A stretch of 32,000 nt of DNA, taken from the NCBI GenBank assembly GCA_947647595.1, contig CANSKZ010000009.1, forward strand, positions 21,072 through 53,071. The letters run 5' to 3'. The notes beneath the pieces were generated by a model, which was given only the letters and a program-made list of their open reading frames with translations, was not told where the DNA came from and did no database searches. Position 1 is the stretch's first letter, and each line of letters opens with the position of its first letter. Source of the stretch: an uncultured Clostridium sp. (lineage in GTDB: Bacteria > Bacillota > Clostridia > TANB77 > CAG-508). A program made the position numbers and the translations under genes. Shown one piece after another: positions 2,028 to 2,286 of this stretch.

Positions 2028-2056
2028 TTGACATATAATAAAATGTGAGTTATAAT
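2028..2056 (+). promoter_or_regulatory. Sigma-A-type promoter (TTGACA-17-TATAAT) for a short + strand RNA
   Basis: ttgaca at 2028-2033, a 17-nt spacer, and tataat at 2051-2056. No ORF follows; the next element is a terminator about 50 nt downstream. Confidence 0.6.
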
Positions 2057-2062
2057 AAATAT

Positions 2063-2134
2063 AACTTATAAGTTTAAGTATACGTTTTAAACGAAATACA
2101 AAAAAAGACTAGGAATGGCGTTTCCTAGTCTTTT
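2063..2134 (+). ncRNA. Candidate type I antitoxin sRNA (locus 1), ~70 nt
   Basis: Bounded by a consensus promoter and the hairpin gactaggaa/ttcctagtc plus a T-run (2107-2134). Segment 2076-2100 (aagtatacgttttaaacgaaataca) is a near-direct repeat of 2189-2213, so it is complementary to the start-codon region of the convergent small ORF. Confidence 0.5.
2101..2134. terminator. Bidirectional intrinsic terminator shared by convergent sRNA and small ORF
   Basis: A 9-bp stem (gactaggaa / ttcctagtc) with loop tggcgt, flanked by an A-run upstream and a T-run downstream, so it should work on both strands. Confidence 0.65.
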
Positions 2135-2137
2135 GCT

Positions 2138-2206
2138 TTATTCTTCATCATCTATCATAGATAAAATAATGAGTAAAGCTAGCGTTTTAAGTATACGTTT
2201 AAACAT
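2138..2206 (-). CDS. Candidate type I toxin, 22-aa hydrophobic peptide MFKRILKTLALLIILSMIDDEE
   Basis: ATG at 2206, with SD GGAGG (2222-2218) 11 nt upstream and TAA at 2140-2138, immediately followed by the terminator. It has its own TTGACG-17-TATAAT promoter and an SD-sequestering 5' hairpin. Confidence 0.45.
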   Translation of the reverse strand: MFKRILKTLALLIILSMIDDEE

Positions 2207-2217
2207 AAATACAATTG

Positions 2218-2252
2218 CCTCCTTTCAAAAGATTTCCTTTTGTGAAAGGAGG
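2218..2252 (-). promoter_or_regulatory. 5' UTR hairpin sequestering the SD of the small ORF
   Basis: A perfect 10-bp stem, cctcctttca (2218-2227) / tgaaaggagg (2243-2252). In the minus-strand mRNA the upstream CCUCC pairs with the SD GGAGG. Confidence 0.55.
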
Positions 2253-2257
2253 GGGAG

Positions 2258-2286
2258 ATTATAATATGGAAATTATAATTCGTCAA
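2258..2286 (-). promoter_or_regulatory. Sigma-A-type promoter for the locus-1 small ORF
   Basis: The minus strand reads ttgacg (2286-2281), a 17-nt spacer, then tataat (2263-2258). Confidence 0.55.

Follow-up and report, generated by a model that had tools for sequence, protein, structure and literature searches.

A predicted convergent small RNA and a 22-codon peptide gene arranged like a type I toxin-antitoxin pair in an uncultured gut member of the Clostridia

Architecture of locus 1

The window analysed here is a stretch of 32,000 nucleotides of contig CANSKZ010000009.1 from the genome of an uncultured gut member of the Clostridia. Its positions 2028–2286 harbor a small locus (locus 1) that consists of a 22-codon peptide gene and a convergent small RNA (sRNA), both enclosed in a 295-bp insert. 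The arrangement is that of a candidate type I toxin-antitoxin unit, where the sRNA is predicted to cover the translation initiation region of the peptide mRNA. The following elements form the locus (ORF, open reading frame; SD, Shine-Dalgarno sequence).

2028..2056, plus strand: sRNA promoter TTGACA-17-TATAAT, 12/12 consensus matches
2063..2141, plus strand: predicted antitoxin-like sRNA of ~79 nt (range about 75–83), both ends predicted
2072..2102, plus strand: sRNA segment complementary to the initiation region, repeat copy 1
2103..2134, both strands: shared bidirectional intrinsic terminator with a 13-bp stem and T-runs on both strands
2138..2206, minus strand: 22-codon ORF MFKRILKTLALLIILSMIDDEE with its stop codon
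2185..2215, minus strand: sRNA target on the mRNA, from 9 nt upstream of AUG to codon 7, repeat copy 2
2218..2252, minus strand: 5'-terminal hairpin of the mRNA, its 3' arm being the SD (GGAGG, 2222..2218)
2258..2286, minus strand: peptide mRNA promoter TTGACG-17-TATAAT, 11/12 consensus matches

A sequence-only reading of this DNA had described the convergent promoters, the 10-bp stem burying the SD, the 22-codon ORF and the bidirectional terminator, and each of these was recovered. When positions 1500–3000 were scanned with at least 11 of 12 consensus positions as the strict threshold, the only promoter sites retrieved were the convergent pair at 2028–2056 (plus strand) and 2286..2258 (minus strand). 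The sRNA would start at A2063, 7 nt after the -10 box, and end in the U-run past the terminator; the ~70 nt given for it in the earlier reading is therefore somewhat short of the 75–83 nt predicted here. In its predicted fold (-21.4 kcal/mol, z = -4.3) a weak stem at the 5' end is followed by the pairing region, which stays single-stranded, and by the hairpin of the terminator. Terminator-like sites numbered two where 0.2 were expected, and the predicted transcripts overlap by ~45 nt at the shared terminator. The loop of this terminator, read by eye, offers no convincing match to the U-turn (YUNR) motif used in par of Enterococcus faecalis plasmid pAD1.

A hairpin occupies the first 35 nt of the predicted mRNA, with a perfect 10-bp stem between cctcctttca (2252–2243) and tgaaaggagg (2227–2218). 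Its folding energy is -15.8 kcal/mol (z = -4.1), and none of 200 shuffled sequences folds equally well. Position 2251, located at the hairpin base, is the likely start of the mRNA, because it is an A in two of three strain variants and lies exactly 7 nt after the -10 box. The GGAGG is located 11 nt before the ATG. The encoded peptide is composed of a basic N-terminus, a hydrophobic core of 11 residues and an acidic tail. Since the SD hairpin is palindromic, the plus strand also displays an SD-like sequence followed by an ORF (MEIIIRQEKLIFF..., 2267–2346); this candidate was rejected, its SD spacing being 14 nt and its frame being shifted by a 1-nt indel in strain L001.

The direct repeat proposed in the sequence-only reading is present, although its matching parts are slightly longer than the 12 + 4 + 7 nt counted there: positions 2073–2101 and 2186–2214 agree over 15 nt, a 1-nt bulge, 5 nt including a G-U pair, an unpaired A and 8 nt. 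The 19-mer core of the repeat (up to 3 mismatches allowed) occurs only at these two places in 32 kb, with 0.05 occurrences expected. As the two copies sit on opposite transcripts, the 5' region of the sRNA can pair with the mRNA. Computed pairing of the two predicted RNAs, which had been suggested as a check, gave a strong duplex between their 5' parts, -26.9 kcal/mol compared with -10.7 ± 2.6 kcal/mol for 500 shuffles, none of them as good. The duplex spans mRNA positions 2215..2185 (-9 to +22 relative to the AUG); it begins immediately behind the SD and reaches codon 7. The claim of pairing across the translation initiation region is thus upheld by this energy, as well as by the co-variation in at least 51 loci of the family described below. 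In addition, the 3' end of the sRNA is fully complementary to the terminator region of the mRNA.

It may be asked whether these elements are a chance constellation in AT-rich intergenic DNA. The host genome is indeed very AT-rich (24–37% G+C across the window), and promoter-like hexamers are frequent at 24–27% G+C, where a loose threshold retrieved 14 sites against 11 expected. However, each of these elements (the two promoters with at least 11/12 matches, terminator, hairpin and repeat) lies above its shuffled controls, and the same arrangement recurs with co-variation in more than 50 diverged loci. The explanation by chance is refuted by this recurrence and retains practically no probability.

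A family of related modules in gut Clostridia

A paralogous second module (locus 2) is located 3 kb from locus 1 at 5097..5409 and contains the following parts.

5097–5125, plus strand: sRNA promoter
5168–5191, plus strand: sRNA terminator
5238..5217, minus strand: mRNA terminator, separate from that of the sRNA
5332..5246, minus strand: ORF for a 28-residue peptide MTSYDLIWKLIILLLSNNKNDKDQENKE
~5371..5343, minus strand: SD hairpin
5409..5381, minus strand: mRNA promoter

The two loci of the window are orthogonal, as the cognate duplexes (-26.9 and -23.8 kcal/mol) are far stronger than the crossed ones (-3.5 and -11.3 kcal/mol). A homolog of locus 2 was found in a goat-gut metagenome-assembled genome (MAG; L022), whose ATPase is only 55% identical. 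Locus 1, locus 2 and this homolog have in common the leader CCUUU(U)C-AAAGGAAAUCUUU-GAAAGGAGG. A metagenome scan for the leader yielded at least 120 loci, nearly all with a small ORF starting 5–13 nt after the SD. Locus 2 is a typical member of this large family (family DNA profile, nhmmer, E = 5e-32).

The layout of the family is constant: -10 box, hairpin, ORF, mRNA terminator, sRNA terminator, pairing segment and consensus antisense promoter, with the leader hairpin directly after the -10 box, as at locus 1. The ORFs start with ATG, GTG or TTG and are mostly 21–46 codons long, with a few longer read-throughs; their consensus is M-[ST]-S-[YF]-[DE]-L-I-W-[RH]-L-I-x-L-L-L followed by a polar or charged tail. 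The members are chromosomal and lie among housekeeping genes. A profile search of 5.8 billion proteins returned 587 peptide clusters at E <= 1, and the only name among the 120 clusters listed is "hypothetical protein". Hundreds of peptide clusters of the family thus occur in gut data from human, mouse, rabbit, ruminant and chicken. In six loci (L090, L121, L169, L174, L192 and L206) the ORF extends to 60–100 codons via stop loss or frameshift and reads through both terminators; these may be pseudogenes or assembly errors.

The antisense promoter reads TTGACATATAATA...TATAMT in the family, and the sRNA starts with a short palindrome (A/G)CTTAAG. A near-consensus promoter of this kind is present in 51 of 57 non-redundant loci, mostly ~110–130 nt past the stop codon, at the place that corresponds to the sRNA promoter of locus 1. 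The first 8–12 nt of the predicted sRNAs form a conserved palindrome (A/G)CTTAAG(C/T), found in the window at 2063–2074 (locus 1, AACTTATAAGTT) and 5132–5143. This palindrome may stabilise the 5' end as a stem, or it may serve as the operator through which a DNA-binding regulator acts on the antitoxin promoter.

The pairing is preserved in the family while the sequence changes, i.e. sRNA and target co-vary. When the strand opposite to the sequence downstream of the ORF was paired with the initiation region in 68 non-redundant loci, the mean energy was -33.5 kcal/mol, compared with -22.0 kcal/mol for an upstream control. Cognate sRNA-target duplexes have a mean of -31.2 kcal/mol versus -15.7 kcal/mol for non-cognate ones (targets less than 50% identical), and for 45 of 51 sRNAs the own target is preferred to all those whose identity with it is below 70%. 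Positions -9 to +17 of the mRNA are paired with the cognate sRNA in about 75–95% of members, and at most of these positions 3–5 types of Watson-Crick or wobble pairs are observed. The small ORF of the family also carries a coding signature: the entropy is highest at third codon positions (1.31), lower at first (1.02) and lowest at second (0.78), and Leu6 and Leu10 are invariant in the 44 members analysed though their codons vary.

Locus 1 shares a number of these features. Its leader matches that of the family at about 30 of 34 positions, a similarity that is partly built in because the search pattern was derived partly from locus 1 itself, and the spacing from promoter to hairpin is also common to both. 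Its sRNA promoter has the TTGACATATAATA...TATAAT form of the family and reads TTGACATATAATAAAATGTGAGTTATAAT then AACTTATAAGTT. Leu10, the hydrophobic core, a Ser and the acidic tail of the peptide can be aligned with the family, while the N-terminal motif is absent. The two terminators are fused into one at locus 1; most relatives keep two, and the RNAs of those relatives would therefore barely overlap. The gap is narrowed by L201, which encodes a 23-residue peptide MGDLINLLILIIVFFVAKNNDKD behind a family leader and opposite to a family sRNA promoter. Its fused terminator stem GACTAGGAA...TTCCTAGTC is almost identical to that of locus 1, and the search pattern was blind to this stem. L201 bridges locus 1 and the family because it combines the family untranslated region (UTR) and sRNA promoter with a shared terminator stem of the locus 1 type. 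Locus 1 is probably a divergent, compact member of the family, judging by these sequence features; the membership is not rated as firm, because profiles built without locus 1 miss it or barely find it.

Insertion history and genomic surroundings

The window is chromosomal: it contains tRNA genes, the signal recognition particle (SRP) RNA, gyrA and dnaB/dnaI-like genes. The search among relatives for the peptide and the repeat structure, as the sequence-only reading had advised, was productive, since in addition to the family sharing the layout the cassette is found in three other assemblies of the species with all elements, including the 22-codon ORF at 2206..2138, intact (four independent assemblies in total). 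The cassette of locus 1 is a 295-bp insertion observed in this species only, and sister species display the empty site. Two elements of the window delimit the insertion.

1994..2007, plus strand: left copy of a 14-nt duplication AAAACTGATTTTTT, which contains the stop codon of an AraC-like gene
2288..2325: ancestral hairpin between the AraC-like and ATPase genes, its 5' arm (2289–2302) being the right copy of the duplication

In the sister species the conserved hairpin AAAACTGAtttttt...aaaaaGTCAGTTTT comes directly after the AraC-like gene and is itself followed by the ATPase gene; the TGA stop codon of the AraC-like gene is inside the 5' arm of the hairpin in L016 and L019. In the window the whole 295-bp module lies between the duplicated copy of the 14-nt arm (1994–2007) and the complete hairpin (2288–2325). 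The closest relative is the mouse-gut MAG MGBC101636, whose ATPase beside the cassette site is 97% identical. L011 retains a remnant of the sRNA promoter region only (~33 nt). The empty sister sites together with this remnant show that the module was gained at the AraC-ATPase site and lost again in a neighbouring lineage, so that gain and loss of the cassette are visible between sister species. Such variable presence is as expected for modules of this type.

Two ideas on the origin of the locus were considered and discarded. A mobile mini-element with target-site duplication was suggested by the flanks of locus 1. However, the 14-nt duplication is specific to this locus, and in 49 family members the flanking repeats are no longer than in shuffled sequences. 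No transposition mechanism is proposed because flanking duplications are not general among the related cassettes. A conjugative-element context was rejected despite the neighbouring HerA/TrwB-like, VirB4/TraG-like and ParA-like ATPases, because the 633-residue ATPase is found again and again in the clade and the window has gyrA a short way downstream. In those close relatives that were examined, the gene of this ATPase likewise follows the AraC-like gene.

The surroundings of the module deserve a separate description. The sequence of the hairpin AAAACTGAtttttt...aaaaaGTCAGTTTT is kept in ~70 species of the clade, ~50–100 nt upstream of the ATPase gene (L011–L087), and this conservation exceeds the need of an ordinary terminator. 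The gene cluster at 2370–9583 adjoins gyrA and encodes the 633-residue HerA/TrwB-like, a 593-residue VirB4/TraG-like and a 346-residue ParA-like ATPase, as well as a 234-residue Cys-rich protein and a 185-residue protein, both without a Pfam family. Its best match in a defence library is mad8. The recurrence of the 633-residue ATPase in the clade gives the cluster the look of a core feature, not of a conjugative element that has integrated.

Two further elements lie next to locus 2. At 5502–5580 a perfect TTGACA-17-TATAAT with TG extension is followed by an 11-bp hairpin and a T-run, which form an sRNA-like unit of ~45 nt with similar copies elsewhere in the genome (L001:1196–1244 and L010:2445–2532). 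No complementarity was found between this unit and the adjacent conserved non-coding region, the computed energy (-15.4 kcal/mol) being weaker than the shuffle mean (-21.4 kcal/mol). That region (~5625–6075) is a non-coding stretch of ~450 nt that is 87–89% identical where the protein of the neighbouring ATPase is only 77–78% identical. Several of its hairpins are preserved by compensatory changes (9 pairs in 4 sequences). The stretch has no Rfam match at E <= 1 and no SD-led ORF, and from its sequence it may be an undescribed structured RNA.

Relation to known systems and interpretation

Locus 1 contains what a type I system is expected to contain at the sequence level, namely a small ORF with its own promoter, SD and terminator, and a complementary RNA with its own promoter and terminator. 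It also has the regulatory design of par, i.e. convergent RNAs, a bidirectional terminator, a 5' repeat and a stem-loop over the ribosome-binding site. The par locus of E. faecalis pAD1 (RNA I/Fst and RNA II) and its chromosomal homologs likewise produce convergent RNAs that end at one bidirectional terminator, pair via direct repeats near their 5' ends, outside of the overlap and across the initiation region, and encode a small peptide with an acidic C-terminal tail behind a 5' stem-loop that sequesters the ribosome-binding site (PMC7472228, PMC8594479). The gene organisation of locus 1 is also that given in T1TAdb for Fst/RNA II and SprA1/SprA1AS, with an antisense RNA located 3' of the gene whose interaction takes place away from the overlap (PMC8594479).

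The same design raises the question whether locus 1 is a true homolog of Fst/RNA II within the Fst/Ldr superfamily; besides gene order and regulation (PMC7472228, PMC8594479), the acidic C-terminus of the peptide is like that of Fst. The Fst/Ldr signature consists of a Trp, in pAD1 Fst a Val, that stands between transmembrane helix and charged C-terminus, and of a P/D/S/TxxxG(C) motif that lies inside the transmembrane segment (PMC7472228). The Trp is absent from the peptide of locus 1 (...IILSMIDDEE), and the Trp of the wider family stands at position 8, before the hydrophobic core. The P/D/S/TxxxG motif is absent as well: the peptide of the window has no Gly, and the A10G variant of L001 creates no such motif. 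Neither the peptide nor the RNAs show sequence similarity to par. The peptide has 22 residues compared with 33 in Fst and a hydrophobic segment of 11 residues compared with ~23, i.e. half the length. Locus 1 has one interrupted repeat instead of DRa and DRb, and it lies on a low-GC gut Clostridia chromosome, whereas par is on a plasmid. Pfam gave no match at E <= 1, and Rfam, searched to E <= 10, gave none to a family of this kind. Common descent with Fst is thus very improbable, and by its sequence locus 1 is placed outside Fst/Ldr. The analogy to par drawn in the sequence-only reading stands for the convergent RNAs, the shared terminator, the repeat and the buried SD; it is a likeness of design and not of descent, and the single bipartite repeat does not correspond to DRa plus DRb.

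Other type I systems are similarly alike in part. In SprA1/SprA1AS of Staphylococcus aureus, which is related to Fst, the antisense RNA is encoded 3' and forms an imperfect duplex with the 5' initiation region (PMC8594479). It has no homology to locus 1, and PepA1 is a 30-residue transmembrane pore-former, for which the hydrophobic core of locus 1 is too short. The type I modules of Clostridioides difficile (e.g. CD2517.1-RCd8 and the phiCD630 loci) come from the same bacterial class and likewise have cis-antisense RNAs in convergent orientation, several paralogs in a genome and a C-terminal tail that is charged; their toxins differ, having 34–59 residues and a clear transmembrane domain, and their RNAs pair via extended overlaps (PMC6563280). 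The peptides of the present family, none of which has more than 11 consecutive uncharged residues (that of locus 1 has exactly 11), are unlike the toxins of C. difficile, B. subtilis and S. aureus covered in a review (PMC6563280). The C. difficile modules are found in prophages or beside CRISPR arrays, whereas the present ones show no sequence similarity to them and no plasmid or phage match. The Ibs peptides of Escherichia coli have 18–19 residues, and Ibs/Sib exist as multiple orthogonal paralogs whose sRNAs discriminate cognate from non-cognate mRNAs. The window resembles them in the very short peptide and the orthogonal paralogs; it differs in that Sib RNAs are antisense RNAs that overlap in full, Ibs peptides consist almost throughout of hydrophobic residues and the host of Ibs/Sib is Gram-negative.

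Searches of family libraries and sequence collections brought no assignment. Rfam gave no match at gathering score for the window and four family loci, and for locus 1 no toxin-antitoxin RNA family at E <= 10. For the peptide of locus 1 no Pfam family was found at E <= 1 and no NCBIfam family at E <= 10, while PADLOC and PHROGs contained no meaningful match to the peptides. By BLAST, neither locus 1 nor a typical family cassette matched the plasmid collection, and the typical cassette did not match the phage collection. A scan of viral contigs for the sRNA promoter plus CTTATAAGTT gave 7 matches, all of which proved to be unrelated promoters before ordinary genes or hairpins. Text searches of the literature for the family motifs and for new type I families found no description.

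We consider that locus 1 probably is a functional antisense-repressed small-ORF unit of type I toxin-antitoxin design. The minus strand would give an mRNA of ~155 nt from ~2251, which would fold co-transcriptionally into the SD-sequestering hairpin, and the plus strand would give an sRNA of ~80 nt from the stronger promoter, which is a perfect consensus. By pairing with positions -9..+22 and through the 3' overlap the sRNA would block binding of the 30S subunit, and the duplex may be a substrate of RNase III and be decayed. Translation would thus be blocked twice, as the mRNA's own hairpin would hide the SD and the sRNA would cover the start codon. If the supply of sRNA drops, some mRNA would be translated and the peptide would harm or arrest the cell. 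Given the short hydrophobic core, the harm caused by the peptide is the weakest step of this scheme.

Several observations weigh against the proposed interpretation. The mRNA promoter nearly equals the sRNA promoter in strength. As to the family membership, a whole-cassette DNA profile built without locus 1 did not report it at E <= 10 (nhmmer), the sRNA-promoter profile built likewise reaches it at E = 0.02 only, and the resemblance of the 5' UTR is in part a product of the search pattern. In the libraries searched no toxin, antitoxin or defence model matches the peptides. Type I toxins typically have a transmembrane helix, for which the hydrophobic core is not long enough, and the limit of 11 uncharged residues in every family peptide makes a classical membrane-spanning toxin doubtful. 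Both differences in the ORF among three strain variants (A10G in L001, and E22K) are non-synonymous. One change in the sRNA retains the pairing as G-U, and another, in L010, leads to an uncompensated A-C mismatch.

The strain differences bear on the possibility that locus 1 is a family relic in decay, no longer functional, its ORF truncated and its terminators fused, which persists only through its recent insertion. Two non-synonymous and zero synonymous changes, together with the uncompensated mismatch, would fit such decay, as would the restriction to one species with the promoter remnant alone in the neighbour L011; the peptide is also among the shortest (22 versus mostly 27–45 residues) and lacks the conserved N-terminal SYELIW motif. 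A relic is nevertheless quite improbable. The promoters, hairpin, ORF, terminator and 28-bp interrupted duplex are intact in four assemblies, and the repeat matches the divergent coding sequence of locus 1 itself, which requires co-evolution after divergence from the family. Moreover, L201 has the same compact layout in a different sequence context.

A different objection accepts the RNA logic as real and concerns only the peptide, which would then be a small regulatory or membrane-peripheral peptide under tight antisense control, and the locus no addiction or stress module. The short uncharged runs fit this explanation; many family peptides are amphipathic and highly charged, e.g. MSGYMLVWILLQKIEKLEEELNTYKNQTNKN. 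The location of members among chromosomal housekeeping genes, with none found in the plasmid or phage collections, and the lack of a matching toxin model point in the same direction. On the other hand, the double repression by buried SD and sRNA over the start codon, the antisense promoter of consensus strength, the multiple orthogonal paralogs in one genome and the patchy presence are hallmarks of type I systems, and very short toxins exist, as the Ibs peptides demonstrate. We regard a non-toxic peptide as unlikely, yet less so than a relic.

A bolder and tentative proposal, to which we give somewhat more credit than to the non-toxic peptide without considering it probable, is that the family constitutes a new class of antisense-guarded short amphipathic peptides, with at most 11 uncharged residues, mostly a SYELIW N-terminus and a long acidic or polar tail, that are not membrane-spanning toxins. 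If this is true, the peptides would act on an intracellular or membrane-surface target, the modules, with hundreds of unnamed peptide clusters, would be among the more abundant unannotated sRNA/small-ORF modules of uncultured gut Clostridia, and locus 1 would be their minimal form, with 22 residues, brought in when 295 bp were inserted into a terminator hairpin.

Type I families are defined by a handful of model loci. To our knowledge, nearly all type I toxin-antitoxin systems described so far come from cultured Proteobacteria and a few Firmicutes. The type I design of the present modules is familiar; what is new is the family itself, its abundance in uncultured gut bacteria and its atypical peptides. 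The family provides computational proof of sRNA-target co-evolution, and it is nameless in all protein and RNA family libraries searched. It gives an annotation to many seemingly empty intergenic regions of gut MAGs and represents a natural set of orthogonal sRNA-mRNA pairs useful in RNA design. It also lends itself to testing whether peptides this short, which lack a full transmembrane helix, can be toxins.

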